Positions 2,142-42,134 of a DNA stretch of 64,000 nt are shown one piece after another. Position 1 is the first letter of the stretch; the number at the start of each line of letters is the position of its first letter. Both the position numbers and the translations under genes were made by a program. The stretch comes from a virus. Its lineage: Duplodnaviria > Caudoviricetes. The notes beneath the pieces were generated by a model. It ran no database searches, was not told the DNA's origin, and was given only the letters and a program-made list of their open reading frames with translations. The stretch is taken from the IMG/VR virus record IMGVR_UViG_3300038345_000094, positions 1-64,000 of that record, one strand, 5' to 3'.

Positions 2142-3662
2142 TTACGAAGCTAACACCGCAGGGATGATAGACATCGTGCGCTGTGCATCGAGAACACAAA
2201 CGCCAAAGATAGCCATACGATGGAAGACAGCAGCATCCTCATCGAAGCTCATCTGATCGTTACCGAGCTGGCCAGTGAACGGGTTCCGCAGACCCCATTG
2301 ATAGCCACGGAAGTCGCTCTGGTTGCGAACACCACACTTGAAGATGTTCGGCTGCTCAGTGGTACCGATATAGAGGATATCGAAGCGGCTGGAATAAGCA
2401 GGACCGCCATTCCACTGAATCTTGTGACGCACAGGATCGTCATAGAAAGGAACAACATTGATCTTCACATGGACACCCATAGGAGCAATCCACTCAGTGA
2501 TCTGATAGTCGTTCACGCTGATAGCGTTACCCGGAGCGAAGTCTGCATTAACCTTCTGATAGTAAGCAGGGTTAGCGGAAGACACGAGAGGCATCCAGCC
2601 AGAAGTGGTTTCCTTAGCAGCCTTGTTGAATAACAGGGCGCCACGCTCACCAGTATTGATGACGAAAGTACGATCGCCATAGTCGAGCTTACCAGCAGAA
2701 ATCTCATACAGAGCCTTCAGGATGAGATCCATAACCTGATGCGCATCGTTGTAGTACATCTGGTTACCATAGGACATCTGCTCCATCAGACCAGCACCAG
2801 TCTTGATAGCATTACCGGACTTACCGATATTCAGATACTCGCCATCAACAGTGCGGTTGGAACGGCCCCAAAGCATAGCGTTGTTACGCTTCTCATCGAA
2901 CTGACGCTCGAGCTCGAACTCGACATTGTGCATCCACATATCTGTCACGGTGTGGGTGAGCTTACCATTGGCATTCTCAGAGATAATCGGAATACCGCAA
3001 GCGAGCTTCTTGTTCAGCATGGAACCCGGCACCTTGTGCTGCATACGAATTGTGGAGAACTCGTTACGCATCGTAACAGGAGCGGAGAAGACGATATCAG
3101 AAACCTTACGGCTGAGTTCCTTCTCGACGAACGGAGCCTCATTGCTGAAGCGCTCGCCCGGGAGCAGACGTGTTGCGGGAACACCAGCGGTGTTACCACC
3201 AGCAAGCTCAACACGGAAGACGTAGTTGGAACCCTCAACGCGAGGATCGCCAAGAATACGGAACTGATAGACCTCATTCAGCTCACCAACGATGTAGTCA
3301 CCATCGAAGAACAGCTGCTCAGGGAATACAAGATAGAAGGGCTCAACACGAGCGCCAATCATGCCCTCGTCACCATCAATAACTGTGCCGTCAAGAGTAC
3401 GAGCCTCAACAAGCGGGACATTCTTACGATTGCCACCGATGACCTGCCAAGTGTATTCGGTGTCATCATCGAACATCTTGGTCGGGAACTGAGACAGATA
3501 AGTGTTTAATGTCTTACCATAGCGATAAGCTAAGAGCTGAACCATAAGATCGCTGGCCTTCTGCGGAGCGAGCTTATAAATAGACCCAAGGTGGTTTTCT
3601 TTTGTCAGTCCACCCCAGCTCTCAAAAGAGGTCATTTGAAATTTGCCTAATTTGCCTGCCAT
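2142..3662 (-). CDS. Major capsid protein (crAss-like)
   Basis: MAGKLGKFQM..GLT..NHLG..APQKA..LMVQLLA; YQWGLRNPFTGQ..MSFDED; closely matches the phiCrAss001-type MCP as recalled. Confidence 0.95.
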   Translation of the reverse strand: MAGKLGKFQMTSFESWGGLTKENHLGSIYKLAPQKASDLMVQLLAYRYGKTLNTYLSQFPTKMFDDDTEYTWQVIGGNRKNVPLVEARTLDGTVIDGDEGMIGARVEPFYLVFPEQLFFDGDYIVGELNEVYQFRILGDPRVEGSNYVFRVELAGGNTAGVPATRLLPGERFSNEAPFVEKELSRKVSDIVFSAPVTMRNEFSTIRMQHKVPGSMLNKKLACGIPIISENANGKLTHTVTDMWMHNVEFELERQFDEKRNNAMLWGRSNRTVDGEYLNIGKSGNAIKTGAGLMEQMSYGNQMYYNDAHQVMDLILKALYEISAGKLDYGDRTFVINTGERGALLFNKAAKETTSGWMPLVSSANPAYYQKVNADFAPGNAISVNDYQITEWIAPMGVHVKINVVPFYDDPVRHKIQWNGGPAYSSRFDILYIGTTEQPNIFKCGVRNQSDFRGYQWGLRNPFTGQLGNDQMSFDEDAAVFHRMAIFGVCVLDAQRTMSIIPAVLAS

Positions 3663-4806: not shown

Positions 4807-4859
4807 ATTTTATTTCTCCCTTGATTTTAAATATTTTTCGATTTTATGTTTTGCTTTTG

Positions 4860-4885
4860 GGGAGAAAGGCGAAATCCTTTCTCCC
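4860..4885 (-). terminator. Hairpin (possible terminator) downstream of the 1197-aa fibre gene
   Basis: GGGAGAAAGG-cgaaat-CCTTTCTCCC perfect 10-bp stem. Confidence 0.55.
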
Positions 4886-4932
4886 TCATTATCAATTAGT
4901 TAACTATTTTATTTTACTTCAAAAACGTCCCG

Positions 4933-4958
4933 TAACTCAATCAGTTTGGGCCGAAAGT
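4933..4958 (+). repeat. Putative recombination site A (TAACTCAATCAGTTTGGGCCGAAAGT)
   Basis: 13/16 identity then CCGAAA shared with 33795-33821; inverted relative to 7897-7921. Confidence 0.5.
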
Positions 4959-4961
4959 GGG

Positions 4962-7900
4962 TTACTTAAAGCGGAACTTTGCGACCTCGTTGTTGAATCT
5001 CACATATGCGGTCTTGTTACCGGTTGTTCCGTTGTTGTTGTAGGCAACATATTGGAAATCCCTGCCGAGGTATTTCATCAGCACATCCCCGTTTGGCAAT
5101 TGGTACACCGACATATCACGGCCACATTTTGCGAGGTTGCGTTGTTCGCTTGAATCGTCCGTATAAAACACATCATAAGCCCCATAGGTATCGTCCACCC
5201 ACACTTCTTCAAAGTGGAATCCGTCATAGGTTGAATAAACGCGGGAAAGAACATCCTTGTATGTGTTCGGCCTGTTGGAAGGGTTGCCGGGGTCTCCGGG
5301 GTCAAGGTCGCAGGAGTATTCACGGATGGCACAAATAAGCAAGGGCGAGTTCTCGTCCCTGCGGAACATATTACCGCCGCACCACTTCGTGAACACATCT
5401 TCTATCCCAAGATGGAGGGCAAAGTCCACCTTCAACGCATCTTTCTTCTTGCCACGATTGACACGGAATATGCCGTTGTTCGCACCATCGGAGAAAAGCA
5501 CGATACAATCTTTCAAGGCATATCCGTTCACGAATTGGAGATTTGAGCCGAGCGAGGTGTCAAGGCCAACATCGGAAGACTTCCACACGATGGTGTCTGC
5601 GAGGTTGTCATCAATCGTTTCTCCGTTGTAGTCCCACCACCAAAGTTTCGGATTGTGATAGGCAAGTTCGGGAGTTGTAGAAGGCGAACCGTCCCCGTTG
5701 ATGATGATAACACGGTCAAAATACGGGTCAACACAAACCCCGTGAATATGTGCGTGAGGGACATCCGGGGCTTTGTCCCGAAGGTCAAAAATCTTGCCGA
5801 AGGTCTGCCCGTAGTCTCTGGAATACCAGACGCATCCGCATTGTCCGTGTTGCCCATATTCGCCCACGCACACAACCGAGCCTCTCGTCTGAAATCCCCA
5901 AGACCACGGGGCAGCCGGGACATATTGAGAAATCTGCGAACAGGCGAACTTCTTGACGAATGTGGTCTTGTTGTTCTCCGTGATGTAGATGAAACAACGG
6001 ATATAAGATGTTCCGTCCACGGTTTCTGCCTCATAGGTAGCGAGGCAGAGTTCCCCGTTATCCATTTCGATAACCTGGGCACCAGCCGAATTGGACTTAA
6101 AAACGGTGAAGGTCTCGAAGTCCTTCGTCTTGTAGATGTTCACATCCGTCCCCTGCGAATTGTTCGCACATTTCCTTTGTGCGACATAGGCATACCCCTC
6201 GGAATCAACACCGATAAGCATACGGAAGTATGTCCCGTACAACTTTGTCGGGTCTCCAATGCCGGGGTAAAGGTTGTATTTTGCAGACGGGATAAGCCGG
6301 GATGTCCTTCTGCCATCCTGCCTGTTCATATACTCCCCGATGCAGGTGTTATAGTTGGAACCGGAGCCAGAAATGACAAGCGGGGTCGGTGTCTTGACTT
6401 TACTTTGAAGGGTTGTGAGGCCGATGTTGAAAGTCTGCGGAGGGTCTGCCAAGATGATGGCCGCATCCTTGCTCAAATAATCGTCCTTCGGGACACGGAT
6501 GGTCTTGTTTGCAAAAACGATTCTTCCAAGTGCGACATCGTTCCCGTAGTAACCTACGGAAAGGAATCCATCGTGTTGCGGTGTATAGTCCGTATCAAGG
6601 TCGAATGTTTCTGGGGTCTCGCCCGTTGTAAGAATCGCAACCACTCCCACATTATCTGCGGGCCGTTCCCTCGAAAAGCCGAGAATCAGTCTATCGGCAT
6701 TTTGGAATATCTCGCCCGTTGAATAGATATGGTATGTGTTCCCGGCCTTGACAGGAATATACACAAGTCTTGAATAATCACTATAAGACAAGACAATCTT
6801 CATACTTCCATCCGCTTCCACACCCGCAAGTTGCACGTTCGTCCTGTCGGTAATGATTTCTTCCGTGGCATTGATGTCAATGTCATAGAGTTTGTCATCA
6901 ACCTTGCCGATTGAATCTTCAAGTGCGTATTCCTTTGTGGTGGCCCTTTCCTTTTCAATCTCTATCCTGTTCTCGCTTTCCGCGATGAAAATACGATGTC
7001 TCGGATAGAACGGTTCGGACGCACTGTATGCCGAATAAACGCAGATGTACCCGTTTTCTTCCGGGGTGTAATAGACATCATAATCGGAAGATGCGGTTGT
7101 CTCCGGGTCATATACACTTTCGTATGCCCCGTTATTTGCGGGCGTTGCCGTACTGAATCCGATATAAGACCACGAAGTCGCTGATATTGTCTGTGCCTTT
7201 GCGATAATGCGGTATGTCTTCCCTGCGACAACGGGGAAATAATAGATGTCCTTCCCGGAAGTAGTGGCCTCGAACTGATGGCTTGTATTCCGCATAATCA
7301 TTCCCTCTACCTTTGTGACGGCGGTGATTTCGGTGAGGACTTCTTCGTTCAGTTCTTCGCCCTGTTCTTCTTCAAGTTCATCAATCCGTTCGTCCAATGC
7401 GGAAACATCGTCCGTGAGTTGTTCGACATCCCCTTCAACATCTTCGACACGGCCATCAAGGGCACCAATCTCGTCCTCAATATCATCCGTTTTGAGCGTC
7501 TTGGTGACACCAATCTCAAAGAACTTGATGCGGCCAAGATATGCGGACGAGCCATTGATTCCAACACCGACATATCCGTTTGTTGCGGGAGTGTAGGTCT
7601 CGTCAATCGTTGCGGGTGTGGATGTGTAGTTCTTGATGCTTGTGGCCACCCCATTATTTGCGGGAGCCTGCTCGGAGAACATCACACTCATCCAAGCCGT
7701 ATTGATTGGCACATCGGAGGTTTCTCCGTTGATTAGGGTCTTAATCTTGTACTGCTTTCCTGCCTCTACGGGTATGTACTTAATCCAAATCGTTGCGGAA
7801 GTGGATGATTCGTATTTCTCCGTAGAAATTCTTGCAAGGCCGTTGAAGTTGCTGCTCCCACTTGTGATGTCGGTTTCGGTCGGTGTGGAGTTATATAGTT

Positions 7901-8555
7901 TGGCCTCCAATTGACTAACTTCCGCATCTGTGGCATATCCGCTAAGGTCCATTTGGGTCGTTCCGACCTGAACCCAAGAGTAATTTGTGCCATTATAAGA
8001 AGAAATATAACGGTCGTATTCGTCATTTGCATCTGGGCCAACAAGGTAAATCTTACCCATTGTGTCGTCAGATGCATTAGGAAGTTCAGTAACCGGAACA
8101 ACTTCACCAGCGCTAAGAGATTCAAACTCTTGCTGAGAAGCGGCACCTATGTTTGCGAGGGCTTGTGTTTTCTGTGCTTCTGTCAGAGATTGTGCTGTGT
8201 ACAGAAGAGAAGCAGGATCACCCTTCGTGGAAGCCTCGTTGATTGCACTAACTAAATCAGTCTTGGCTGTTGTAGTGAGATCACTAAGATCGCCAACATT
8301 ATCTACTACTTCGTTAATCGCATCAACTGTGCTATCCTTATCAGTCGTTTTGAGATCGGTGATGTCGCCAAGCTCCTCGGAGAGACGCTCTACTTCTGCG
8401 CCGCCTCCTTCATAAGCGTCAACCCACTTACCCTTGCTGAATATCTGAACGACTACAGGAGATGTTAAATCATCTTTAATAGAGTGGTGAGCCCAAAGGA
8501 CATCTTTCCTCTTAGGAGGCTCTTCACCCTTATAAACGTCTGTATATTTTCGCAT
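4962..8555 (-). CDS. Fibre/receptor-binding protein: N-terminal docking and stalk, three CBM-like repeats, C-terminal Asp-box (BNR) beta-propeller
   Basis: Repeats YIPVEAGKQYKI / YFPVVAGKTYRI / YIPVKAGNTYHI; Asp-box-like WYSRDYGQTF, YKTKDFETF, YSTYDGFHF; fibre motif YTAQSLTEAQKTQALANIG. Confidence 0.75.
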   Translation of the reverse strand: MRKYTDVYKGEEPPKRKDVLWAHHSIKDDLTSPVVVQIFSKGKWVDAYEGGGAEVERLSEELGDITDLKTTDKDSTVDAINEVVDNVGDLSDLTTTAKTDLVSAINEASTKGDPASLLYTAQSLTEAQKTQALANIGAASQQEFESLSAGEVVPVTELPNASDDTMGKIYLVGPDANDEYDRYISSYNGTNYSWVQVGTTQMDLSGYATDAEVSQLEAKLYNSTPTETDITSGSSNFNGLARISTEKYESSTSATIWIKYIPVEAGKQYKIKTLINGETSDVPINTAWMSVMFSEQAPANNGVATSIKNYTSTPATIDETYTPATNGYVGVGINGSSAYLGRIKFFEIGVTKTLKTDDIEDEIGALDGRVEDVEGDVEQLTDDVSALDERIDELEEEQGEELNEEVLTEITAVTKVEGMIMRNTSHQFEATTSGKDIYYFPVVAGKTYRIIAKAQTISATSWSYIGFSTATPANNGAYESVYDPETTASSDYDVYYTPEENGYICVYSAYSASEPFYPRHRIFIAESENRIEIEKERATTKEYALEDSIGKVDDKLYDIDINATEEIITDRTNVQLAGVEADGSMKIVLSYSDYSRLVYIPVKAGNTYHIYSTGEIFQNADRLILGFSRERPADNVGVVAILTTGETPETFDLDTDYTPQHDGFLSVGYYGNDVALGRIVFANKTIRVPKDDYLSKDAAIILADPPQTFNIGLTTLQSKVKTPTPLVISGSGSNYNTCIGEYMNRQDGRRTSRLIPSAKYNLYPGIGDPTKLYGTYFRMLIGVDSEGYAYVAQRKCANNSQGTDVNIYKTKDFETFTVFKSNSAGAQVIEMDNGELCLATYEAETVDGTSYIRCFIYITENNKTTFVKKFACSQISQYVPAAPWSWGFQTRGSVVCVGEYGQHGQCGCVWYSRDYGQTFGKIFDLRDKAPDVPHAHIHGVCVDPYFDRVIIINGDGSPSTTPELAYHNPKLWWWDYNGETIDDNLADTIVWKSSDVGLDTSLGSNLQFVNGYALKDCIVLFSDGANNGIFRVNRGKKKDALKVDFALHLGIEDVFTKWCGGNMFRRDENSPLLICAIREYSCDLDPGDPGNPSNRPNTYKDVLSRVYSTYDGFHFEEVWVDDTYGAYDVFYTDDSSEQRNLAKCGRDMSVYQLPNGDVLMKYLGRDFQYVAYNNNGTTGNKTAYVRFNNEVAKFRFK
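7897..7921 (-). repeat. Putative recombination site B, in-frame (codes EVSQLEAKL)
   Basis: Minus strand AAGTTAGTCAATTGGAGGCCAAACT aligns with site C (18/26, one gap); coincides with a composition shift. Confidence 0.5.
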
Positions 8556-8677
8556 AATATTTATTTGTATATGTTAATCTCGGTCTATATTAAACAGTCA
8601 GAGATTGTTAGGTATCCCGCATAAGCAGGTTAACAATATTTTTATATTACTTCTAAATCTGTTTAATTTAAAAGTCC

Positions 8678-8710
8678 TGCAAATATAAGACCATTTTTGA
8701 TTTTTTCAAA
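8678..8710 (-). promoter_or_regulatory. Bacteroidota-type primary sigma promoter (-33 TTTG, -7 TAnnTTTG)
   Basis: Minus strand TTTG...TATATTTGCA upstream of fibre gene. Confidence 0.7.
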
Positions 8711-12143: not shown

Positions 12144-12164
12144 TTATTTTTGTAACGTTACGAG

Positions 12165-12198
12165 CGCAAAGATAAGTAAAAAATTCGAGAAAAGACAA
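12165..12198 (-). promoter_or_regulatory. Bacteroidota-type promoter
   Basis: Minus strand TTG...TATCTTTGCG. Confidence 0.65.
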
Positions 12199-12213
12199 CA
12201 ATGCTAAATAAAC

Positions 12214-17333: not shown

Positions 17334-19619
17334 TTAACTATTAATTGCATTTATTATCTGTTGCAGCGTATAATAATTACCATCGCCGCTATTATAAAAT
17401 CTGATTGTACCGTCTGTTAAGACTTCAATCGCATTTTTCCTATGCTGTTCGTCAGTACCTACACCAATAGAGAAGATAACATTCACTTTAGACTCATTAT
17501 ATTGTCCGCAAACGAATGCGCCGTCTTGATCATCAGCACGGTTGCCAAGACCAGTTACAAAAGCATCACTTGCGTCAGCGACACATTCTTCACCGAATAC
17601 GAAAGTATTATCACCACTTGCGCCTGAACCGCTACCACCAGCAAAACTATTCTCACCAGAAGCCTGATTATATTGTCCACAAGCAAAGGATGCGAATCCA
17701 CTCGCTTCACTACCTAATCCTGCAGCATGAGAGTTAGGACCGCTTGCTATAGTGCTATTCCCTTCTGCATGAGAACAGTTACCGCTTGCTGTCGAACCGG
17801 CTCCTTCTGCATGAGATTTATCTCCACTCGCAACGCAATTGAGTCCTTCCGCGTGAGAATAATCGCCATATGCACCAGATACTATCACGAAGAAGCTACC
17901 GTCATCTTCATATCCGCCCTCAATAAAAGGATCTTTCTCGAAGTAAAAAGTATAAACACCACCACCGCTTGTCGTAACTTGTGTTATTCTTGTATACGTG
18001 TAATTAATGTATACTAATTTACCAGCAAGTTCATTAACGTCATTCTCGATATTCAACTCATCTCGAGGAATAACGTATGTAGCCTCAACGGATTTTGTTA
18101 AATCGTCATACGACCCATTGGTATATGTAATCTCAACTTCATTGTATTCAGAAGCACCTTCAGCGTGAGAATATTTGCCAAGAGCAAAATTACCACCTTC
18201 AGCGTGAGATCCATCTCCGCCAGCGACCGCACCTTCGTATTTATCGTCAGCGTAACCTTCCGCATGAGACCCAACACCTAATGCGATTGTTCTAGATCCT
18301 TCGGCATGAGACTCATCGCCAAGTGCATCAGTAAGATAACCCTCAGAGTGAGAACCGTAGCCAATAGCTTGCGTGTCATCACCAAAGGCTTGAGATCTTT
18401 CGCCAAGTGCATAGACGTTATGACCTATTGCAATTGCTTCCTGAGCTGGTGCAGTTGCGCCATAGCCAAGACTGACACTTTTCAGGTCCTCGTTGGTTCT
18501 AAGTAATTCTGTTTTTACATAACCCCTAAGATTCGGGATGTTAACTTCACCAGAAGTAAATACCTCTAATGCATTCTCTCTATTTGAATCACTTGTACCA
18601 ATACCGACAGAAAATATCTGGTTGTTGTTTAACTTGTTATATTTACCAAATGCACTTTCTGCTTCGTTCGTGATAACCGTATAGTAATTGGCAACAAAGC
18701 CATAACGACCGTTTGCTTGAGTTTGATAACCAGTAGAGAAGGTGAATTTCTCGTTACTGTTTGCGTAAAATCCTAACGCAACAGAGTTATCGCCAAGAGC
18801 ATTGCAAGCCCAGCCTCCGGCAATTGAATAATTGCCAACTGCTTTAGATCTATGTCCAAAAACAAAAGACCCCTTACCTAAAGCTTCCCCATCTGATCCA
18901 ATGACAAGCGTGTTCTCTCCAGATGCTTTAGTCCCAGAGCCAAACGCTACTCCGCACTTCCCAGATGCTACAGAGTCAATACCCGATGTGAGAGAGAAAT
19001 CACCGCTGGACACATTATCTAAGCCCATTGCAACAGAATTGTCGCCAGAAGCAGAAGACCCACCTGGGAGCTCTGCAGAATATTCTCCGCTACCAGAATT
19101 CCAAATCTTTTCAGCCTGTGGAATATTCAGTTTCGGTATGTTAACATTACCAACAGCATCAATCTCAATTGCATTAAGTCTGTTTTCCTCACTATCGCCA
19201 ACGCCAATGACAAATAAAGCATTTGTGTCGATATTATTATATCGTCCTAATACAGTCTGATACGGCTTATCTGCGATCAAACCAGAACCTATGGCGACGG
19301 AATGATCCGCCAATGCTTTAGATTGATGACCAGCAGAGAATGCAAAAGCGCCTTTAGCAATATTGCTTGCCTCACGCATCGCCGCAGAAGCCTTCCCTTC
19401 TTCTCTTACAAAAGGAGAACCACAGCAGCAGCATTCCGTCGTATCTGTTTTATAGGAGCCCCATATAAGAGGCTCCCATTTATTCTTTATCCAAATCTCG
19501 GCAATCATCGCCGATTGGATGTCATTTCGTTTTTCGTGATGAATCCAAATAACGTCCTTGCTTTCAGGCGCATCTTCTCCACGATAAACAAATGAATATA
19601 TGTTTCTATGTAAAGGCAT
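17334..19619 (-). CDS. YadA-head-like trimeric fibre/adhesin
   Basis: Many ~14-aa A.G..SHAEG repeats and neck motifs (FSVGIGTSDSNRENALEV). Confidence 0.75.
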   Translation of the reverse strand: MPLHRNIYSFVYRGEDAPESKDVIWIHHEKRNDIQSAMIAEIWIKNKWEPLIWGSYKTDTTECCCCGSPFVREEGKASAAMREASNIAKGAFAFSAGHQSKALADHSVAIGSGLIADKPYQTVLGRYNNIDTNALFVIGVGDSEENRLNAIEIDAVGNVNIPKLNIPQAEKIWNSGSGEYSAELPGGSSASGDNSVAMGLDNVSSGDFSLTSGIDSVASGKCGVAFGSGTKASGENTLVIGSDGEALGKGSFVFGHRSKAVGNYSIAGGWACNALGDNSVALGFYANSNEKFTFSTGYQTQANGRYGFVANYYTVITNEAESAFGKYNKLNNNQIFSVGIGTSDSNRENALEVFTSGEVNIPNLRGYVKTELLRTNEDLKSVSLGYGATAPAQEAIAIGHNVYALGERSQAFGDDTQAIGYGSHSEGYLTDALGDESHAEGSRTIALGVGSHAEGYADDKYEGAVAGGDGSHAEGGNFALGKYSHAEGASEYNEVEITYTNGSYDDLTKSVEATYVIPRDELNIENDVNELAGKLVYINYTYTRITQVTTSGGGVYTFYFEKDPFIEGGYEDDGSFFVIVSGAYGDYSHAEGLNCVASGDKSHAEGAGSTASGNCSHAEGNSTIASGPNSHAAGLGSEASGFASFACGQYNQASGENSFAGGSGSGASGDNTFVFGEECVADASDAFVTGLGNRADDQDGAFVCGQYNESKVNVIFSIGVGTDEQHRKNAIEVLTDGTIRFYNSGDGNYYTLQQIINAINS

Positions 19620-32047: not shown

Positions 32048-32537
32048 GTATACTATTTTCGTTTGTTATAGTGTAAATCGCAGGTACATAATTTTCATCA
32101 ACTGTAATTATATAACCATTGATTGCCTTATCTCTAAAATCATGATACGCTGATTGTATCTTTACGAGATTCGTACTTACCGTCTTTTGTGTTATTGCAA
32201 GTACTGTATCTGAATATTTCAAACATGTAGACGTAATGTCTATATCTCTTAATTGCTGCAATGTTGGAGTCGCTCCATCAAGTTCAAGATTTCCCAGAAC
32301 ATCATCTACGTCTTGTCCGTCGTCTTCAAAATCAAGAATTTCAAGAACGTGTGTTGTCAACTCCTCTTGGTCATCATTCCCAGACGATTGTTGACCGACA
32401 TCAACCCAATCACTACCATCATATATCTGTGTTACTATCGGCGATGTACTGTCACCAGTTACTGAATGATGCCGCCATATAACACCACTGCTTATCGGAG
32501 GTGTTTCTCCTTTGTATATTTTAACGTATTGTCCCAT
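32019..32537 (-). CDS. Protein with N-terminal module shared with two fibre proteins
   Basis: YKGETPP....VIWRHH....TSPIV.QIY....W aligns with N-termini at 8555 and 19619. Confidence 0.6.
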   Translation of the reverse strand: MGQYVKIYKGETPPISSGVIWRHHSVTGDSTSPIVTQIYDGSDWVDVGQQSSGNDDQEELTTHVLEILDFEDDGQDVDDVLGNLELDGATPTLQQLRDIDITSTCLKYSDTVLAITQKTVSTNLVKIQSAYHDFRDKAINGYIITVDENYVPAIYTITNENSIHGIEEKTGQ

Positions 32538-33550: not shown

Positions 33551-33664
33551 AAAAAGGGGCGAGTGTTAGCCCGCCCCTCATAGGTCGACTACCGATCTTT
33601 GCCATAACGATATGTTTTATCGTTTCAATATGCAAAGATAAGTAAAAAAATCGACAAATCCAAA
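33551..33664 (-). promoter_or_regulatory. Promoter plus leader terminator hairpin upstream of recombinase
   Basis: TTTG...TATCTTTGCA (33631-33664); AGGGGCG..CGCCCCT-TTTTT hairpin at about 33551-33577. Confidence 0.6.
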
Positions 33665-33793
33665 TTTTTTCTCCATTTTTTAATGGATTTTATTATTCTA
33701 TTACTTTTTAATAAATTATCTTAGTCAGTTATATGCCTTCTAAGTAGTTAAGTTACACCAAATTTTCTAAGAAAACCCCTTCTATTTGGGGAT

Positions 33794-34030
33794 TTAACTT
33801 AGTCGGTTTGTACCCGAAACTAACGTGTCTTGCTTCTGGGATAATTCCGAGGCAGAAGCAGAACCTATATTGGTGCGCGCTCGCTGCTGTTGCGATGAAG
33901 TAAGCGACTGGGCAGTATACTTCACGGCATTGGGAGTACCGCCCCCACCACCGCCCTCCTCAAGCAGCTTCTCTATCGTCTCTAAATGACGTACGTAATC
34001 ACGATTCGATCGTTTATTAATCGCTACCAT
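33794..34030 (-). pseudogene. Truncated fibre gene fragment (78 aa)
   Basis: YTAQSLTSSQQQRARTNIG matches the 1197-aa fibre; ends abruptly after KQDTLVSGTN inside site C. Confidence 0.55.
33795..33821 (+). repeat. Putative recombination site C (TAACTTAGTCGGTTTGTACCCGAAACT); core copy CTTAGTCAGTTA at 33720-33731
   Basis: Similar to sites A and B; next to recombinase gene. Confidence 0.5.
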
Positions 34031-34139
34031 TGCTATTCTCACTGTTACCGCCACCTAACAACTCTTCAATCTTTATTAAATGACGTATGATGTTCATATC
34101 AGACTGCTCGTTCTGATCATAATACTTGTCTTCTTCCAT
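34017..34139 (-). CDS. Small protein (40 aa) paralogous to the N-terminus of the next ORF
   Basis: NEQSDMNIIRHLIKIEELLGGG vs NKRSNRDYVRHLETIEKLLEEGGG. Confidence 0.55.
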   Translation of the reverse strand: MEEDKYYDQNEQSDMNIIRHLIKIEELLGGGNSENSNGSD

Positions 34140-34492
34140 ATTATATGCTTGTATTATATTTCATTCATTAGGACAACTAAAACAAAACCTCCAACTTCAC
34201 CTCTGGATACAATATATCCTAGGCGGGTTTTGCCCCGTCCACCTTACCGTCTCCGGCAGGTCTATCCATAAATCTTCAGGAAACCGCGTTACATCACTCC
34301 CGAACAGCTGTTTACCTCTGCCTTTTCTCATAGTACTTGGCCAGCTAAATTCCCCTATATCTATGGACCGTTTTGGCCACGGGTTAAACTATTCGCCCAT
34401 GTGAGAACCTGACGCTATATCCTTATAATCAGATGATATCAGGCTGACAATCGCATAGTACTAATATACGATACCACTAAATATTTTAACGA

Positions 34493-34526
34493 TGCAAAGA
34501 TAAGCAAAATTTTTGACATTTCCAAA
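34493..34526 (-). promoter_or_regulatory. Bacteroidota-type promoter heading the late arm
   Basis: Minus strand TTTG...TATCTTTGCA. Confidence 0.7.
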
Positions 34527-34828
34527 TAATTTCACTGAAAATTACAAATAATTATAAAAAAAATAATTTTTAAATTTTTTTCTCCAAAATTTTCGAAATC
34601 ATCACGATTCGTGTGAGTGGAGGATAAAAATATTTTTTTCTAAATTTTCAAAAATTCTTGATGTTCGTGTGTTTGGGAAATACCCGTCAGCACCCCCACC
34701 GGTGAGCCCTAAAAGGGTGCGATACCCCCGCCGTCGACGAGCAGTCGTCTTCGGCCAATATATCGCAAGCGTCTTTCGCCACCGTACGCGTAAACCGTGT
34801 GGCATCAACATCTAAACGACAGCAAACT

Positions 34829-35326
34829 ATGTCTACGATGTTACAGCGTATCCGGAACGCCAAGTCCGGACAGTCCAGCCTCACGCCCAACGCCAATGCC
34901 GACCGAATCTACGGCAGTGCCTATGTCCCGTCGAACTACGCCATCAAGAGCGAAGCCGTCGACGCAATGGGACGGCACATCGCCATCCTCGCCGCACAGG
35001 TCGATGAGAATGTCACGACCAACCGTCGTGGCGAACTCTACGCCCAGAAGCGAGTCGTCGGCTTCCTCGCAGGTCCTGACGGCAAGGCCAGTGGCTCCTA
35101 CATCTTCATCAAGTTGCGGAGCGACTCCTCCCTCACGCCAGGCCAGTGGCTCGACCCGAAAACCCTCGTCGTCGCGAATATGTCGCAGAACGGCCAGGTC
35201 CTCAACGGGCAGTACCTCATCGAAGAAGGCCACGACTTCGGCGGTACCATCGGCGCCGTCAAGCCCACCTGCATCGACGAGACAGCCGTTGACGCCTCCG
35301 TCCTCGCCCTCGCAAAGACCGAGTAA
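34829..35326 (+). CDS. First plus-strand gene, GC-rich hypothetical protein
   Basis: Strong C-ending codon bias; ATG after A-rich leader. Confidence 0.65.
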   Translation: MSTMLQRIRNAKSGQSSLTPNANADRIYGSAYVPSNYAIKSEAVDAMGRHIAILAAQVDENVTTNRRGELYAQKRVVGFLAGPDGKASGSYIFIKLRSDSSLTPGQWLDPKTLVVANMSQNGQVLNGQYLIEEGHDFGGTIGAVKPTCIDETAVDASVLALAKTE

Positions 35327-36047
35327 TCGGCTGGACCGACAGCACTGCGGGCTCCCCAACACCACGGGGGGCCCGTCAGTAAACGGCAGTCCGGCAGCTT
35401 AGAACGAACATCTATACCTTTAATATAATATATATATAATATATAAGGTATAAGTGTTCAACTCCAATCTGCCTATCTCTCCTTTGTCACGGTTGATACA
35501 ACTTTAAGTTCATTGTTAACAACAATTAGAATGTATAGTTCGTTTCTCAAAATACCACAACCGCCTATTTAGGGATGATATGGCAGCGTAACTCTTTGGT
35601 AATCAATGAGTTTGGAGGCTATTCTGCTGGTCGGCAACCCCATTTCCCAACATTATTTATTACCTAATTATTACTTAATATTAGAATATGAGGGCAATAA
35701 AATTATGTTTTCGGGGATTGGAGGTAGTAGTCTGTGCTATACAAAGAATGGTATCCCGTCCGCCAAGTAGGTCTATCCATAGTTATATTAACTGTGTTGT
35801 ATAGGTCGAAGTTGCCGACCATGGGGTTTAAAAGACAAGCCACCTTGGAGTGAAACAGGCAAATAGCATACCTATAATGGGCGCGATAAATGCTTACCGT
35901 TGTGATTAGCTAGGCAACGCCCTACCTGCTGGGAACTGCAGGCAGTTATGGGGGTCACTGAGAGACCTCTTAATATGCAGTAAACGCTGACGGATGTCGG
36001 TATGACTGCGAAGCCACCTATGGGGACAGGTAAAAAGTCCCCAACAT

Positions 36048-36122
36048 TGCGGAGTAGAGCAGTGGTAGCTTGTCAGCCTCATAAGCTGAAGGTCGTAGGT
36101 TCGAATCCTACCTCCGCAACCA
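36048..36122 (+). tRNA. trnM: tRNA-Met (CAT), initiator-like
   Basis: Cloverleaf, loop CTCATAA, encoded CCA. Confidence 0.92.
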
Positions 36123-36143
36123 AACCTTTAACACAAAAAGCGT

Positions 36144-36590
36144 ATGGACAAAATCATTGAATTCGCGCTTACCCACAACGACTTAGAGCGTAAGGGTATT
36201 CTCGACATCGTCAGGGAGTTGACGATGTCTGGCTTCGATGCTGCTCTTGCTACGGAGTGGCTGCTTGGTATTTCCTCTCGCGAAGAGGCTCTTGCCAAAG
36301 TTCCTACTACTGTTATTCACGGTGGTGTCACTTACACTCTCACTGAGGTGAAGTTCCTCGAGCGCCAGGGGAACTACGAGTATCCAAGCTCGACTGTTCG
36401 TTACTTCCGCACTCAGGAAGAGGCTGACCGTTACTCCAACACTCGTGAGTTCAACTACCGCAACTACTCCGACAATCAGTCCGAGGAATTCAATTTCCGC
36501 GGTGAGTGGCATTACACGGGTAGCAGCTGGATCAGTATCGACGAGTGGATGAAGTGGTCGAAAGAAGGTGAAACTCCTCAAAACAGATAA
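36144..36590 (+). CDS. Hypothetical protein
   Basis: 148-aa ORF with A-rich leader. Confidence 0.6.
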   Translation: MDKIIEFALTHNDLERKGILDIVRELTMSGFDAALATEWLLGISSREEALAKVPTTVIHGGVTYTLTEVKFLERQGNYEYPSSTVRYFRTQEEADRYSNTREFNYRNYSDNQSEEFNFRGEWHYTGSSWISIDEWMKWSKEGETPQNR

Positions 36591-36593
36591 CCT

Positions 36594-36839
36594 ATGGAAA
36601 AGCACGTAGAGATTGTAGGGGTCATCCATGTGGTGTACCCCTACAGGTCTGCGCGTCTGGCAAATTGGACGTGCTGTGTTCCGTTGAGCGATCTGGACAT
36701 CCTGTATCTTCGTCGTCGTCTTTTGAAGAACGGCTTCGGTCTGGATAACCACATTTGCTTCTCCACGACGGACGGCAACTTCATGTATTCCGACAACAAA
36801 CTGTATGTCGGTGGTCAGATCGTCAAGGGCCGTTGGTGA
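36594..36839 (+). CDS. Hypothetical protein
   Basis: 81-aa ORF, tight operon packing. Confidence 0.5.
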   Translation: MEKHVEIVGVIHVVYPYRSARLANWTCCVPLSDLDILYLRRRLLKNGFGLDNHICFSTTDGNFMYSDNKLYVGGQIVKGRW

Positions 36840-37120
36840 TGCAATTCATTATCCATCATATCTACGATGAGGATGGCGGCTTTGGTGACGCTGTTCAAAT
36901 CGATGAAGTGATTGGTGTGTTGGAATGCACTCCAAGTCAGCTGCAGGAGTATCTGGACAGATACAACAAGAAAACGGCTTATTGTCAGCCATATGCAACC
37001 CTTTATTGCGGTGAGCTTAAAGCGGAGGCTGTGGATGACATAAAGTTGTTGTTTCTCGACGAAGATCCTATCCCCGAAGTTCGTAAATGGCCTGAGAGAT
37101 ATGGATTTGATAGCGAATAA
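36839..37120 (+). CDS. Hypothetical protein
   Basis: TGATG overlap start MQFIIHH. Confidence 0.55.
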   Translation: MQFIIHHIYDEDGGFGDAVQIDEVIGVLECTPSQLQEYLDRYNKKTAYCQPYATLYCGELKAEAVDDIKLLFLDEDPIPEVRKWPERYGFDSE

Positions 37121-37248
37121 CAGCGTATTGCGCACAGTCGTAGCGTTGATTTTCATTGTAGTCATGGCGTGGTGCGTCTATTCCATACTTCGGTATGAGA
37201 TGGACACATCTTACCGTGACGAAACAGAAACCAATAACAGAGAGCAAG

Positions 37249-37515
37249 ATGAAACTGATCAAAGACTCTAACGGTAACTTCATTATTGCTGATGACAATG
37301 GCGTCAGCAAGCAGGTAGTCCATGCCGATGAGGTTATTGATGGCGCAAAACTGGCGAAATACCAGCGTAACGCCTCCAACATGGACAACAAGAAGCTTCT
37401 CGACACGTACGTGGAGATGAATCTCGTTGCATTTGTCGACAGGGAGGATGAATATCCTGACTTCGAGACGATGTTCGAATGTGTCTACCACGAGCTAATC
37501 CGGAGGATGTCATGA
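37249..37515 (+). CDS. Hypothetical protein
   Basis: Start MKLIKDSNG. Confidence 0.55.
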   Translation: MKLIKDSNGNFIIADDNGVSKQVVHADEVIDGAKLAKYQRNASNMDNKKLLDTYVEMNLVAFVDREDEYPDFETMFECVYHELIRRMS

Positions 37516-37967
37516 AGACTTTCAATCTGAAAGAGATCAGCAATGCTATTGCCATCTTCTGTCATCGCGTGAAGCTCGGGCAGTCCTGTTATGCGGAAGA
37601 CCTGCATTTGAACAACAGGGCCGCTCAGTTGCTTAAAATCGCCCTTACGAGCAAATTCAGTAAGTCCAAGAGACATCCTTTCGACTTCCCGAGATTGTTC
37701 ATTCTGGACGATAAGAAGCATCAACTCTACCACAAGGTTACTACTCCCAACGATGTTGATTTGAGCAATATTGGTACTGTAAAGGATATCATTACGCTCA
37801 TGACATTCGTTGGTCGCACTAAGCGTGGTGTCGCCAAGGAGGAAAGAACGGAAGTTCTCCAATCTTCTGGCTTGGGTGGAAGATTCCGCCTCAATGGTCG
37901 TACAGTCACGAGAATCGTGATTGAATTTCACGACGGGGTCATCGACACTCACATCACGACTTGTTAG
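37512..37967 (+). CDS. Hypothetical protein
   Basis: ATGA overlap start MKTFNL. Confidence 0.55.
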   Translation: MKTFNLKEISNAIAIFCHRVKLGQSCYAEDLHLNNRAAQLLKIALTSKFSKSKRHPFDFPRLFILDDKKHQLYHKVTTPNDVDLSNIGTVKDIITLMTFVGRTKRGVAKEERTEVLQSSGLGGRFRLNGRTVTRIVIEFHDGVIDTHITTC

Positions 37968-37993
37968 TTCTTCTCGGTTTTTGTGTTGGTTTC

Positions 37994-38034
37994 GGGGCAT
38001 TGTGAGGGCTTCAGCCCTTATAGTGCCCCTTTTT
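37994..38034 (+). terminator. Rho-independent terminator
   Basis: GGGGCATTGTGAGGGC-TTCA-GCCCTTATAGTGCCCC-TTTTT. Confidence 0.8.
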
Positions 38035-38046
38035 AAAATCAGTACG

Positions 38047-38391
38047 ATGAAAAGACTTACAACCATCCTCCTCGCTATCCTGATGTGCGCCTGTGTGAGC
38101 GCCAAGGAAAGCAAATGGGTCGAACAACAATGTGTAGACCTTCCTTCTGGTGTCAAGATGGAAAAGGGCACCACTTCGTCCGGCAATGTCAAATACTGGT
38201 TTGAATTCGATCAGATTGGCAAGGTGACTGTTTCTCCAGGATCTGCTGAGAAATATCTCGCTGGTGAGATCACTCTGCAGCTGGTGAAATGGCGTCATGT
38301 TGATACTGGCGACTACAAATACAGTATCAGACAGAAGAAAGGCTCGAAACAGACCAAGAATATCGATTTACTAACGATTTTCAAGCGATGA
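38047..38391 (+). CDS. Secreted or lipoprotein-like hypothetical protein
   Basis: Signal peptide MKRLTTILLAILMCACVSA. Confidence 0.6.
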   Translation: MKRLTTILLAILMCACVSAKESKWVEQQCVDLPSGVKMEKGTTSSGNVKYWFEFDQIGKVTVSPGSAEKYLAGEITLQLVKWRHVDTGDYKYSIRQKKGSKQTKNIDLLTIFKR

Positions 38392-38672
38392 CCTTCGAGC
38401 GCGGCTGCCGGTACGATGAGAAGACTGGCGAAGTTTGTATCTACATGAACAAGCCGAAGAACATCACGGAGTCGCTGAAGGGGCGAAACATACGCTTTGA
38501 GCATATCAACATGTGCGTAGACGAGTTTAAGAACAAGTCTGGCGTTACTATGTTGAGCTTCAAGGGTATTGTTAGAACCCGCTTCAGCGACTTCAAGTCT
38601 ACGACAATCTATCTCCGCGGCCGTATTACGAATGAAATTCAAGCAATGTCGTTTCGATATGGAAAGAAATGA
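38388..38672 (+). CDS. Hypothetical protein
   Basis: ATGA overlap; 94 aa. Confidence 0.5.
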   Translation: MTFERGCRYDEKTGEVCIYMNKPKNITESLKGRNIRFEHINMCVDEFKNKSGVTMLSFKGIVRTRFSDFKSTTIYLRGRITNEIQAMSFRYGKK

Positions 38673-38752
38673 TTTGTTGACTGATGTCCTTGCCTTCCTG
38701 TTCGCACTCATTGTTGCGATAGTTATCATTTACTCATTATTCTTTAGTTAGT

Positions 38753-39376
38753 ATGAATTTATTCCTCAAAGATCTCAATGTTCGTGATTTTTTGAGAAAC
38801 TATAGGTGTGTTATCCTCTGTCCGGGTGATAGAGCTTATTACACTTATAGCAATCCGCTCACGATGCTCATTGAAGAACCGGAGAGACACAGTGTGCCAA
38901 GCTATCGTATTGGCGATTCGCTTCGTTTCTTGACTGAGAATCACCTCCCGGAGTATCTTCACGACTTCTATCCGACCATCGACATAGACTTCGACAATCC
39001 TCGTCCGCGTATGACGCTGTCGCATAACTATCAGAATGCGCAGTTCTTCATGCCGGGAGATAAACTCGAGTCTTACATCATCGACATGGATAGCGCCGTA
39101 AAGGTGGTGGAGGAATTCAAGTGGAAAGTTCCTCACACATTCACGAAACTCAGCAAGGAGACCGTTTCTCGTTTCTTGAAGACGCTGGACGAAAAAGAAG
39201 GTTTCGACCTTTCGAAAATCGTCTTGGCGCCTATAAAGTATACGCTCGTCAATCCGGGTGCTGGTTGGAACGAGAGGCTTGTTCCTAAAAAATACATCGT
39301 CTTCGACAATAAGTTGAATCCTATCTACGTGAATGCGTTACTTGAGGTTCTCGACAAGATTATCGTAGACGATTAG
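38753..39376 (+). CDS. Hypothetical protein
   Basis: 207-aa ORF. Confidence 0.6.
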   Translation: MNLFLKDLNVRDFLRNYRCVILCPGDRAYYTYSNPLTMLIEEPERHSVPSYRIGDSLRFLTENHLPEYLHDFYPTIDIDFDNPRPRMTLSHNYQNAQFFMPGDKLESYIIDMDSAVKVVEEFKWKVPHTFTKLSKETVSRFLKTLDEKEGFDLSKIVLAPIKYTLVNPGAGWNERLVPKKYIVFDNKLNPIYVNALLEVLDKIIVDD

Positions 39377-39484
39377 CTCTAAGAGTGAAGCTTGATACCG
39401 GCTTGCTGTCAATAACTGGGCCCGTAGGGAATATGTGAGACAGTATAAAGTAGAGATAAAACCGCTCGAAGCCACTCTTTTCTT

Positions 39485-39569
39485 GCCTTGGTGATGAAAT
39501 GGTAGACATAGTGGACTTAAAATCCACTGGCCAGAAACGGCCGTGCGGGTTCGATTCCCGCCCGAGGTA
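39485..39569 (+). tRNA. trnL: tRNA-Leu (TAA)
   Basis: GTGGA-CTTAAAA-TCCAC; long variable arm; GTTCGA. Confidence 0.92.
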
Positions 39570-39599
39570 CAAAGTTCAACTTATTAACACAAAGAAGAG

Positions 39600-39806
39600 A
39601 TGAAATTCATTGCAGCCTTAGTAGTGCTTCTTTTGTTGGCTTTTGCAGCACTATTCTTCGCGTCTCTCTATGTCGTGCTTGCTCCTACTCCTCGGCATAA
39701 GCACAAAGAAATCAAGACGCCAGTGAAAAAGCCTGAAGTAGAACCGCTCGGCGAGTCGAAAGACATCAACGGCATTGAAGTCCAACAGGGAATACTTATG
39801 TCATGA
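39600..39806 (+). CDS. Small membrane protein
   Basis: Long hydrophobic N-terminus. Confidence 0.55.
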   Translation: MKFIAALVVLLLLAFAALFFASLYVVLAPTPRHKHKEIKTPVKKPEVEPLGESKDINGIEVQQGILMS

Positions 39807-40299
39807 TTCATTTCACTGCCTACTGGGGTTACATTGAAGAAATTCGTGTCAGCCCCGAAAATGCACTCAAGATGGCAAGAATGTCATACCACAACGGTGT
39901 GTTGTCCTTGCCAGACTACTTGAAGATTCGCAGTAAACTCGAACAAAAAATCGGAAAGAAATGAGCAGAGTGGTAACTAACAAATTACTCCGCGCGATTG
40001 ACCTCTGGATCGACAGGATTAAGTCAAGACGAGAATTAAGGAAGGCTTTGAAAGCCTCATACTCTCAGTGTGAATATGCTGAAGAGCCAGATCCTGTGAT
40101 TGACGATATCGATTATGTCCGGAGAAGCTAAGAAAAAGGAAAGTCTCATCATCATTCATCTCGACAGGGAGGTAGACGATCAGTTACTTGAAGCGATGAC
40201 GCAATCTGTTATTGCATTCATGAACAGACGTTGGCCCATCGAAGCGAATTGGCAATTACCGTCTTAATTAATGTCTAGCAATCTTAAAATCAGGAGGTT

Positions 40300-40530
40300 A
40301 TGACAGAAAAGAAATTCCAGAAAATAAACGCTGCGCATAGTGAAATTCGATATTGGAGAGATGTCCTTCGAAACTTAAAGGACATTCCAACAACGGACTT
40401 TCACATTCGCGCTTCTACTGTTGGTAGTGGCTGTGATCACTCAGTTTCGTTTATCATAAAGGGAGATGAACTAATCGACCTGATTACCAAGAAACTGCAG
40501 ACAGCGATAGACGAATTCGAACGGCTTTAA
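40300..40530 (+). CDS. Hypothetical protein
   Basis: 76-aa ORF. Confidence 0.5.
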   Translation: MTEKKFQKINAAHSEIRYWRDVLRNLKDIPTTDFHIRASTVGSGCDHSVSFIIKGDELIDLITKKLQTAIDEFERL

Positions 40531-40538
40531 AGCTGAAT

Positions 40539-40612
40539 AGGGAGTTAGCTCAGCCGGTTAGAGCAGTACCCTTATAAGGTAAAGGTCCTGGGTTCAAGCC
40601 CCAGACTCCCTA
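40539..40612 (+). tRNA. trnI: tRNA-Ile (TAT)
   Basis: TACC-CTTATAA-GGTA anticodon arm; A73. Confidence 0.88.
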
Positions 40613-40642
40613 CCGATTGTTAAACTTCTAATTGACCAGTAT

Positions 40643-41542
40643 ATGACACGAGAAGAAGCAATAGAAATTGTGAAAACGCAATATTCTCACGATAGTGTTA
40701 TGAAAACAGCTCTCGGGATGCTGATTCCTGAACTCTGTGAGAGCAGCGATGAGATAATTCGGTCTGCTATGATAAAAGGATTCAATTTTCTAATGGTGAA
40801 ACGCGAAATTAATACATTTGCCGGGACACCAATTAGAAATATTCTTGCCTACCTTGAAAAGCAAGAAAATGCCTTTGAGAACGGTCGTCAGTTTGGAATT
40901 ATGCAAGAACAGGCAAGACAAGAACTTGAATGGCCAGATGAAAAGCAGAAAGAGCAAAAGCCTGAAATCAAATATGTTTATCCAAAATTTAGAAAAGGAG
41001 ATGTTATCGAACCAATTACACCAAATGGTCATTTTACACCAGTGCGGGTTGTAGATATATGGAATAACAGCTATTCTTGTAGGTCTGATGATGGTAATGC
41101 GTATCTGAGTCTTCCTATAAAGCATGAAGACGAATATAGACTTGTAAAGCAGAAGCCCACAGAGAAGCAAGATTACTCTAGACTGAATGACCTTGAACGG
41201 GCAATCCATCGTGGATTCCTTGCTGCTGGGATTGAAAATGTTTCTGTCACTATTATCAAAGAAACCGCACAGGATTGTCTTGCACAGATGAAGTCAGCAG
41301 AGTGGAGCGAGGAGGATAAAAAATTTCTTCAAGTTGCTATTTCTTGCACTTATGACCGAGGTTATTTGTCGGTTTCTAATTGGCTCAAATCCCTCCGTCC
41401 TTCTTGGAAACCCAGCGAGGAGCAGATGAATTGTTTATGTGCCGCAGTTGATGCGGCAATAAGAAAACACAACGAATCGATAAGTGGATATGAGCCCGCA
41501 AGAGTTCTAAAATCACTCTACGAACAACTCAAGAAACTTTGA
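40643..41542 (+). CDS. Modular Bacteroidota-phage hypothetical protein
   Basis: AYLEKQ, EQKP, WSEEDK, WLKSLRP.WKPSEEQM modules. Confidence 0.65.
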   Translation: MTREEAIEIVKTQYSHDSVMKTALGMLIPELCESSDEIIRSAMIKGFNFLMVKREINTFAGTPIRNILAYLEKQENAFENGRQFGIMQEQARQELEWPDEKQKEQKPEIKYVYPKFRKGDVIEPITPNGHFTPVRVVDIWNNSYSCRSDDGNAYLSLPIKHEDEYRLVKQKPTEKQDYSRLNDLERAIHRGFLAAGIENVSVTIIKETAQDCLAQMKSAEWSEEDKKFLQVAISCTYDRGYLSVSNWLKSLRPSWKPSEEQMNCLCAAVDAAIRKHNESISGYEPARVLKSLYEQLKKL

Positions 41543-41543
41543 C

Positions 41544-41777
41544 ATGGAAGCACCTGATAAAATATATCTTGAGAAAAGTCTTTCTTTTCCAGACAAATTT
41601 CACCGCCATTGGTATAAAGAAGACATAGTTGGAAATGGCATTGAATATATTCGCAAAGACAAACTAATTGAGTGGACGGAAAGAGAGTTAGAGAAACGTA
41701 AAAATACAGGAGATGATTACTTCTATCCTGCAATCGTTGTCCTTGAAGATTTGATTGATAAACTTAACGAGCTATAA
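41544..41777 (+). CDS. Hypothetical protein
   Basis: APDKIYL...IEYIRKD motif. Confidence 0.55.
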   Translation: MEAPDKIYLEKSLSFPDKFHRHWYKEDIVGNGIEYIRKDKLIEWTERELEKRKNTGDDYFYPAIVVLEDLIDKLNEL

Positions 41778-41781
41778 CACA

Positions 41782-41955: not shown

Positions 41956-42134
41956 TATTCGCGCGGTTTTTGGGGGTAGTGCCGCGCATATACCGAAAAA
42001 AGGGTTGCAGTAGGTCGCCATCATGTGAACCCTTGATCCCTAAAGTTAAAAGCCGCGGGCGGTCAAATGCAGAAGGCTACTGCGGGAGACAGACCATTGG
42101 GTAATTCCATAGGAGCGCACTAATGATGGCTTTT

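Follow-up and report, generated by a model that had tools for sequence, protein, structure and literature searches.

The fibre gene and its two borders

The window examined here is a 64,000-nucleotide (nt) stretch of viral DNA (Duplodnaviria; Caudoviricetes) from IMG/VR record IMGVR_UViG_3300038345_000094. It makes up the first 64 kb of a contig of 102,257 bp whose ends overlap by 77 nt, and the genome reads as that of a circular crAss-like phage. Our subject is the gene for a tail fibre of 1197 amino acids (aa), the 3-kb cassette that encodes its C-terminal part, and two short sites that edge this cassette: an in-frame junction within the gene, here called J, and a non-coding element just past the stop codon, here called S. 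S is inverted relative to J, which lies on the other strand at a distance of 2.96 kb. An earlier note on this DNA, made from the letters without database searches, had named these places site B and site A, respectively, and had proposed that a tyrosine recombinase encoded elsewhere in the window flips or swaps the segment between them. Its map of the locus was correct: the open reading frame (ORF) of the fibre occupies 4962-8555 on the minus strand and encodes 1197 aa; site A lies at 4933-4958 on the plus strand, 3 nt from the fibre stop codon (a TAA at 4962-4964); and site B, at 7897-7921 on the minus strand, is in frame and codes VSQLEAKL.

Table 1. Features of the fibre locus and of the recombinase region, in window coordinates.
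Feature	Position	Strand	Basis or score
Fibre gene, 1197 aa (P0001)	4962-8555	-	ORF list, translation
N-terminal docking module, ~aa 1-50	8406-8555	-	BLASTP, relatives
Native stalk and "knob" domain, aa 51-220	7896-8405	-	94-97% identical in P0012, P0013; GC3 0.37
Junction J (site B), codes ...AEVSQLEAKL; knob end, cassette 5' edge	7893-7924	-	
Imported C-terminal cassette, aa 221-1197	4965-7895	-	GC3 0.54-0.61; homologues P0002-P0011 with other N-termini
S element (site A), non-coding 26-nt site, cassette 3' edge	4931-4962	+	40.4 bits, best in genome
G+C-rich hairpin, 10-bp stem, downstream of S	4861-4890	-	direct sequence reading
Bacteroidota-type promoter boxes (TTTG ... TATATTTG) upstream of fibre gene	8680-8710	-	
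Short tyrosine recombinase, 332 aa	32537-33535	-	PHROG 1 integrase, E 8e-15
Site C	33795-33821	+	below 8 bits with S matrix; overlaps 3' end of small stalk-repeat ORF

The fibre protein begins with a module of about 50 aa (Y-x-G-E-x-x-P ... W-x-HH ... W) that it shares with two further proteins of this phage, of 761 aa (start at 19619) and 172 aa (start at 32537), with BLASTP E values of 6e-13 and 4e-17. The three copies stand at the head of their proteins (8406-8555, 19470-19619 and 32388-32537, all on the minus strand), and the C-termini behind them are mutually unrelated. Protein P0053 is 94% identical to the fibre over this module and diverges past aa 52, and a 137-aa gene that occupies the fibre slot in the relative L002 (L002:4302-4755) keeps only this module, at 56% identity. 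The break past aa 52 and the recurrence of the first 50 aa on the 761- and 172-aa proteins identify a docking module, which is probably a docking peptide shared among proteins of the virion. PHROG tail-fibre matches fall on aa 56-111, within the stalk and knob part that follows.

Base composition changes at J. The G+C content of third codon positions (GC3) is 0.37 over aa 1-220, which resembles the rest of the phage, and rises to 0.54-0.61 over the remainder of the gene; S-bearing phage contigs have 49-58% GC. The earlier note had estimated overall GC at about 40% for the 5' part and near 50% or above for the cassette; the shift is real but smaller than claimed (45.4% versus 49.2%).

The cassette encodes three divergent beta-sandwich-like repeats (~aa 221-700) and a 7-bladed beta-propeller (~aa 750-1197), and it is probably the glycan-binding or receptor-binding end of the fibre. 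The propeller comes from a structural model of the C-terminal ~450 aa with a predicted local distance difference test (pLDDT) score of 78.5; in a fold search its best match was YncE (Z 23.6, root-mean-square deviation 3.3 over 297 residues), with many propellers tied. The model of the N-terminal 230 aa was of low confidence (pLDDT 45) and was left unused, and a PDB sequence search with the fibre and with the neighbouring 373-aa protein gave no match. The description of this part as "CBM-like" repeats followed by an Asp-box propeller was therefore right as to the propeller fold, but just one Asp-box-like motif is present; the three repeats are visible as short motifs only and are insignificant by self-BLAST.

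Relatives of the fibre protein part at the junction

Homology to the fibre breaks at J when it is followed from either end. Over aa 1-220 it has 97% identity with one close relative, P0012 (909 aa, from a contig of 102,011 bp), and 94% with another, P0013 (891 aa, carrying a GDPD domain); past ...DAEVSQLEAKL both are unrelated to it. Alignment of relatives had been suggested as a check on whether homology ends at the SQL codons; at the protein level it ends exactly past EVSQLEAKL in both. Coming from the other end, P0004 and P0005 are similar to the fibre only from aa 211/219 to the end, and P0009-P0011 only over the last ~450-490 aa, that is, over the propeller. Scans for a close relative gave none, neither with the N-terminal 211-220 aa against IMG/VR and the JGI metagenomes nor with the propeller as query.

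The junction is widespread. A full HMMER search with aa 1-260 found the knob-plus-junction module in 1,788 protein clusters, and among the 158 matches that reached the knob, 61 ended at aa 220-224. They share the motif DLS-x-YATK-x-E-[VL]-[SN]-QL-x-x-[KE]-V, past which come unrelated ends such as SGNH, GDPD, M14 peptidase and metallophosphatase domains. What is conserved in J is the peptide; synonymous positions vary. With a conserved N-terminal anchor, unrelated C-termini in close relatives and a break at a domain border, the gene has the make-up of a modular (mosaic) tail fibre.

The S element belongs to a family of phage sites

We searched IMG/VR exactly with a 20-nt degenerate pattern and obtained 17 stretches with 15 distinct S sites, on 14 other contigs. 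Their consensus is TAAGTCAGTCAATTAGGGCCGAAAGT; the TAA to the left of the searched pattern, which was not part of it, is likewise conserved. The flanks of S are unlike between phages on both sides. A weight matrix built from 15 independent sites of other phages, with the window excluded, was then applied to the 102-kb genome. Site A scored best (40.4 bits) and site B, on the opposite strand, was second (14.6 bits); a palindromic echo of site A reached 12.2 bits, and all other sites scored 8 bits or less. A score of 14.6 bits was reached somewhere in 23 of 200 shuffled genomes, and the case for site B depends entirely on its position at the junction, which protein homology had set independently. 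The junctions of other phages score 9.6-28.1 bits with the same matrix. In the reverse comparison, junction DNA of another locus (L025) matched the genome at 20 or more of 30 positions in a single place, which is site A (22 matches; the next best place had 19). A peptide scan of the loci also found sites that read stop-[VFL]-S-Q-L-G-P-K-V (L018, L021/L022 and L026).

In S, a GGGCCG centre of 6-7 bp is flanked by two arms that form an imperfect inverted repeat, site A being a 14/18 palindrome, and J carries S-like arms around a GAGGCC centre. Such arms around a centre would correspond to the layout of a simple tyrosine-recombinase core site. In the phages found, S lies just past the stop codon of a fibre gene, or of a small ORF behind a fibre gene, and is always inverted relative to the junction. 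Seven loci, one of them on a contig of a metagenome-assembled genome (MAG), have an inverted J 1.8-3 kb from S (L018, L026/L052, L053, L059, L060, L062 and the MAG contig L071), with S within a few nt of the stop codon of a fibre gene or small ORF. In six loci (L054, L055, L056, L058, L059 and L071) there are 2-5 copies of S, all in one orientation, and each copy follows a small ORF encoded on the same strand as the fibre. In one phage record (L053 and L063 of one contig) there are two fibre genes, and both have a J and an S of their own.

The family is common to crAss-like and to unrelated, temperate-type phages of the rumen. A second crAss-like phage with S sites is represented by a record of 94,278 bp with terminal repeats (L055), whose capsid gene is recognised at E 7e-140; its S sites follow a fibre-like gene of 480 aa and an ORF of 57 aa, and their place in the genome differs from that in the window. 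Among 185,579 bacterial and archaeal genomes the S pattern had ten matches, only one of which has both the site and its flanks: a rumen MAG contig of 4.4 kb, where S again follows a fibre gene. Neither full-text searches of the literature nor GenBank phages yielded a description of this combination of S and junction.

The earlier note had connected sites A, B and C, the last of them beside the recombinase, by their similarity to one another. That similarity is at chance level. Aligned in inverted orientation, A and B score 8 (local alignment, +1/-1), which 491 of 20,446 genome tiles (~2%) equal; A and C score 12, which was reached by 13 of 20 block-shuffled windows. The relation between A and B is upheld because of outside evidence, namely the S matrix and the protein junction, and not because of mutual similarity. 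Site C, together with a 12-mer close to it, does have the letters reported for it, but both fall outside the S family, scoring below 8 bits. Site A matches the consensus, lies next to a stop codon and is inverted relative to a junction; site C does not share this combination.

Cassettes are replaced exactly between J and S

Exact replacement of a cassette between these two boundaries is seen in the sequences of phages that carry the site family. The loci L053 and L059 have 99.3% identity up to a point ~9 nt past J, and 98.5% from the edge of S that faces the cassette; the segments enclosed are unrelated, 1.75 kb long in one locus and 2.74 kb in the other. The two ends of one contig (L058/L062) likewise part from each other at S. 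On this 34.4-kb IMG/VR contig the final 160 nt (L062:12115-12274), which hold S and its constant flank, are repeated at L058:657-816 behind different genes; two variants of the cassette from a single phage population seem to have been merged in the assembly.

The break of homology at the sites was thus found both at the DNA level, in relatives that have the system, and at the protein level, in relatives of the window. The idea that the C-terminal 3 kb form a discrete cassette has stood: it is bounded on the 5' side by the in-frame site B and on the 3' side by the inverted site A, and exchange between phages occurs at these edges. It is very probable that J and S are the borders of cassettes and that cassettes are exchanged at them.

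The tyrosine recombinase

The only recombinase of the genome is the 332-aa enzyme, which is its sole match to PF00589, at 18.6 bits and so below the cut-off of that model; PF13102 matches it at the cut-off. An HxxR motif (HTAR) and a C-terminal tyrosine were read from the translation by eye. A serine recombinase (PF00239) was not matched anywhere in the genome. The enzyme lies 25-28 kb from J and S, and its closest relatives, with 66-70% aa identity, are encoded on contigs of non-crAss phages.

Some of these relatives are close neighbours of S. In L018 and L021/L022 the gene for a related enzyme ends 54-80 nt from S, and S abuts a convergent fibre operon; in L019 and L020 a related enzyme is present and S is absent. 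The S arrays of L058 and L056 have an integrase of a second, longer type at a distance of 0.3-3 kb. A tyrosine recombinase gene is present in all six records with S whose completeness is 90% or more: PF00589 detects it in five of them, and PF13102, on a 432-aa ORF, in the record of L058 (G008). In seven of the nine cases that could be placed, the recombinase is within 4.3 kb of S; in the record of L055 it is ~35 kb away. An involvement of the recombinase in cassette exchange is plausible.

The surroundings of the enzyme in the window hold two small ORFs upstream of it (33794-34140, minus strand). One carries a fibre-stalk repeat (AVKYTAQSLT ... ARTNIG ... KQDTLVSGTN) and has an early stop, and the other, of 40 aa, is paralogous to its start; both resemble fragments of fibre genes. 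A 19/20 inverted repeat connects 33725-33744, in the AT-rich region upstream of the recombinase, with 42521-42540. Its second arm is inside an ORF (42224-42586), just before a tRNA-Ser, and we rejected the repeat as probably due to chance.

Interpretation and alternatives

We consider it probable, without great confidence, that the 3-kb stretch is a horizontally exchanged C-terminal fibre module edged by J and S and held in a fixed, expressed state. On this account the native part of the fibre (aa 1-220) would comprise the docking module, stalk and knob and end in J, and the imported part (aa 221-1197) would run from J to 3 nt before S. Cassettes would be replaced between phages through recombination at or beside J and S, and the arrangement in this genome would be the fixed, expressed one. 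S would then be a site recognised by a protein, most likely by a simple tyrosine recombinase like the 332-aa enzyme. That S is a recombinase target is a serious possibility, and one that we advance tentatively. The equal arms and different centres of the two sites would favour recombination of J with J and of S with S over an inversion between J and S. Taken furthest, J and S would be heterospecific sites of a natural recombinase-mediated cassette exchange that moves receptor-binding modules together with small accessory genes, the [ORF-S] units of the arrays; this last step is rather doubtful.

Several observations weigh against a dedicated exchange system. The S matrix detects no S-like site beside the recombinase of the window, and S and the enzyme are 25-35 kb apart in both crAss-like phages. 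Fibre genes adjoin the integrase gene and phage attachment site (attP) in many temperate phages, and because this is common the proximity of S to a recombinase elsewhere is weak evidence. J would make a poor sequence-specific DNA site, because its conservation is that of a peptide, with variable synonymous positions. Within genomes there is no co-variation of J with S (p = 0.33), and none of the 11 segments between S copies is shared between arrays. Exact breaks at J and S are also to be expected from homologous recombination in conserved flanks.

This last point leads to ordinary fibre mosaicism, in which general or short-homology recombination moves the modules with no recombinase, and S is a 3'-untranslated or regulatory element that serves as a passive homology patch. 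The flanks of swapped segments are 94-99% identical, and crossovers anywhere within them would yield the same break points. The protein-level conservation of J, the lack of co-variation just mentioned and the lack of hybrid sites all suit this explanation, and S lies between the stop codon and the terminator hairpin, where it is transcribed with the fibre gene. The mobile regulatory cassettes of promoter and stem-loop (PeSLs) in the modular shuffling of T4-type phage genomes offer a precedent (PMC2839356). Mosaicism leaves unexplained, however, why S is an inverted near-copy of junction DNA, why 26 nt are nearly invariant amid flanks that are unrelated on both sides, and why [ORF-S] units form tandem arrays. 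S also has no hairpin of its own, and RNA pairing between J and S in the window is no better than in shuffles (101 of 500). On the whole we regard mosaicism alone as rather unlikely.

The model of the earlier note was that the 332-aa recombinase reversibly inverts the segment between A and B, with a truncated fibre as the OFF state. In its favour, A and B are mutually inverted and bracket the cassette exactly, and the one tyrosine recombinase of the phage is of the short, "armless" size. A phage-encoded tyrosine invertase acting on receptor-binding-protein genes is also known, in the Rin shufflon of bifidobacterial prophages (PMC6109161). The two sites, however, have only 15 of 25 bases in common, with no identical run longer than 5 nt and with unlike central regions. 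Tyrosine recombinases require identical overlap regions, and the differing centres therefore make a flip unlikely. Reading on from S opens only junk (a median of 31 codons over 23 sites, 35 in the window), so that an inversion would merely truncate the fibre. Nowhere does the genome contain an alternative cassette or a repeat of the fibre gene. The expressed configuration is the only one seen, in the 23 S sites as in the junctions: in the assemblies none of the 23 is an inverted-state hybrid, and none has a Glu codon and an open fibre frame in front of it. The recombinase is distant, as described, and the sites claimed beside it fail with the S matrix. A reversible A x B flip is thus not supported, given the unlike centres, the missing alternative cassette and hybrid site, and the 25-28 kb to the enzyme. 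That the cassette of the window flips is very unlikely, and so is this particular model.

The remaining explanation, by which S is an attP or the relic of one from a temperate donor phage that hitch-hiked with the cassette and has no role in exchange, is likewise very unlikely. S does occupy the usual place of attP 54-80 nt behind the integrase stop in L018 and L021/L022, and it lies ~300 nt from another integrase in L058. An attP would, however, scarcely occur once behind each of two fibre genes of one record (L053 and L063), in arrays of 2-5 copies, or, as in L053 and L059, next to a 551-aa gene and not an integrase. Among the 185,579 bacterial and archaeal genomes there was no attB and no prophage flanked by S; that S is not host sequence, being confined there to one phage-like MAG contig, argues against an attachment site. 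Two other mechanisms were rejected outright: a diversity-generating retroelement, as the genome has neither a reverse transcriptase (PF00078) nor a template or internal repeat of the fibre gene, and a Gin-like switch, as it has no serine recombinase.

Comparison with known systems

The closest systems described are the Gin/Cin/Min invertases, Rin, the integrons and the PeSLs, and none of them has this layout. In phages Mu (Gin/G) and P1 (Cin/C) and in p15B (Min), as in the window, the crossover lies at the junction between the constant and the variable part of the fibre, and inverted sites bracket the variable C-terminal part; the purpose, variation of host range, would also be that of the cassette here. 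These systems have an adjacent serine invertase and a second C-terminal cassette in inverted orientation, and the window has neither; its two sites are non-identical, and no inverted state was seen.

Rin has a constant N-terminal part of the receptor-binding protein, short repeated sites, small tandem genes and a distal tyrosine recombinase (PMC6109161). The loci L058, L056 and L018, with the order fibre, J, cassette, S, (ORF-S)n and recombinase, resemble the layouts of Rin and of R64 Rci. In Rin, however, every variable C-terminus lacks a promoter and is preceded by an 11-bp rix site, and inversions have been seen (PMC6109161). S instead comes after each ORF, these ORFs have starts of their own, and no inversion was seen. 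The window also lacks the site arrangement of a shufflon: it has one J and one S, and elsewhere the S copies trail ORFs and all point in one direction.

The S arrays recall integrons in their tandem units of one ORF and one site, in a partly palindromic site that keeps one orientation, and in the nearness of a tyrosine recombinase; as in integrons, the content of close relatives differs exactly at the sites. They differ in the site itself, which is 26 nt long, with an imperfect palindrome of 14-18 nt and without the long hairpin of attC. Moreover, an array opens with the 3' portion of a gene, joined in frame at J; J and S face in opposite directions and are not direct repeats; and no cassette turned up a second time.

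Conserved motifs are also present in the adhesin genes of T-even phages, where the swapped modules include adhesin tips. In the account of PeSL cassettes, short conserved border motifs coincide with the break points of modules, as J and S do, and are associated with homologous recombination; they do not appear there as inverted copies of each other (PMC2839356). In the window, by contrast, the motif at the 3' border does not code for protein and nearly repeats, in inverted orientation, the coding junction at the 5' border; it is common to unrelated phage groups.

Genomic setting of the fibre locus

The assignment of the genome to the Crassvirales follows from a crAss-type major capsid gene (the ORF at 2142-3662, minus strand, matches the Crassvirus family PF23898 with E 2e-170), tail ring proteins (one near the capsid gene, PF25710, E 1e-32) and a genome of ~100 kb. 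Sequencing runs that contain the locus carry the labels bovine or sheep gut; one bovine gut run, likely the source, contains it in full, and 23 more runs share about a quarter of the words sampled from it. Neither the fibre locus nor the S element had a match among GenBank phages.

The fibre gene sits between a DUF5675 gene and the 373-aa gene, which in turn precedes the major capsid gene. The hairpin downstream of S is likely the terminator of the fibre transcript. The promoter boxes upstream of the gene were identified by the consensus of Bacteroides promoters, and in the relative L003 an equivalent promoter directly drives the 373-aa gene. This relative, ~75% identical to the window, is without the whole fibre gene (window 4830-8667 versus L003:3107-3117). 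The slot between the DUF5675 and 373-aa genes is a variable insertion point directly behind a late promoter. Boxes of the same type (TTTG ... TAnnTTTG, minus strand) recur upstream of minus-strand genes at 8680-8710, 12157-12205, 33623-33671 and 34485-34533, and their recurrence fits a Bacteroidales host.

Two further observations concern other parts of the genome. Among 11 phage tRNAs there is one of suppressor type (anticodon tta, reading TAA) at 42135-42209, and in the ~11 kb around it (~34000-45500) translation table 11 gives short and overlapping ORFs only; stop codons may be recoded in this part of the genome. Beyond the window, 70142-70171 on the plus strand is the second-best match to the junction peptide profile (LDQLAQEVRG, 18.4 bits), which the S DNA matrix does not flag; it may be part of another fibre-like gene.

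Implications for rumen phages

Mosaic tail fibres are well known, and the movement of their modules is usually ascribed to chance recombination. The fibre module described here has two defined edges, the 3' one being a conserved, non-coding 26-nt element that is an inverted near-copy of the coding 5' junction. Even as a mere homology patch, S is a precise marker of cassette borders in uncultivated phages. If S is the target of a recombinase, phages of gut Bacteroidales have a dedicated mechanism for swapping host-recognition modules, and a short motif could locate receptor-binding cassettes in viromes. Should the cassette-exchange scheme hold, unrelated lineages of rumen phages, the Crassvirales included, would draw on a common pool of cassettes, an integron-like system for the modules that set phage host range.

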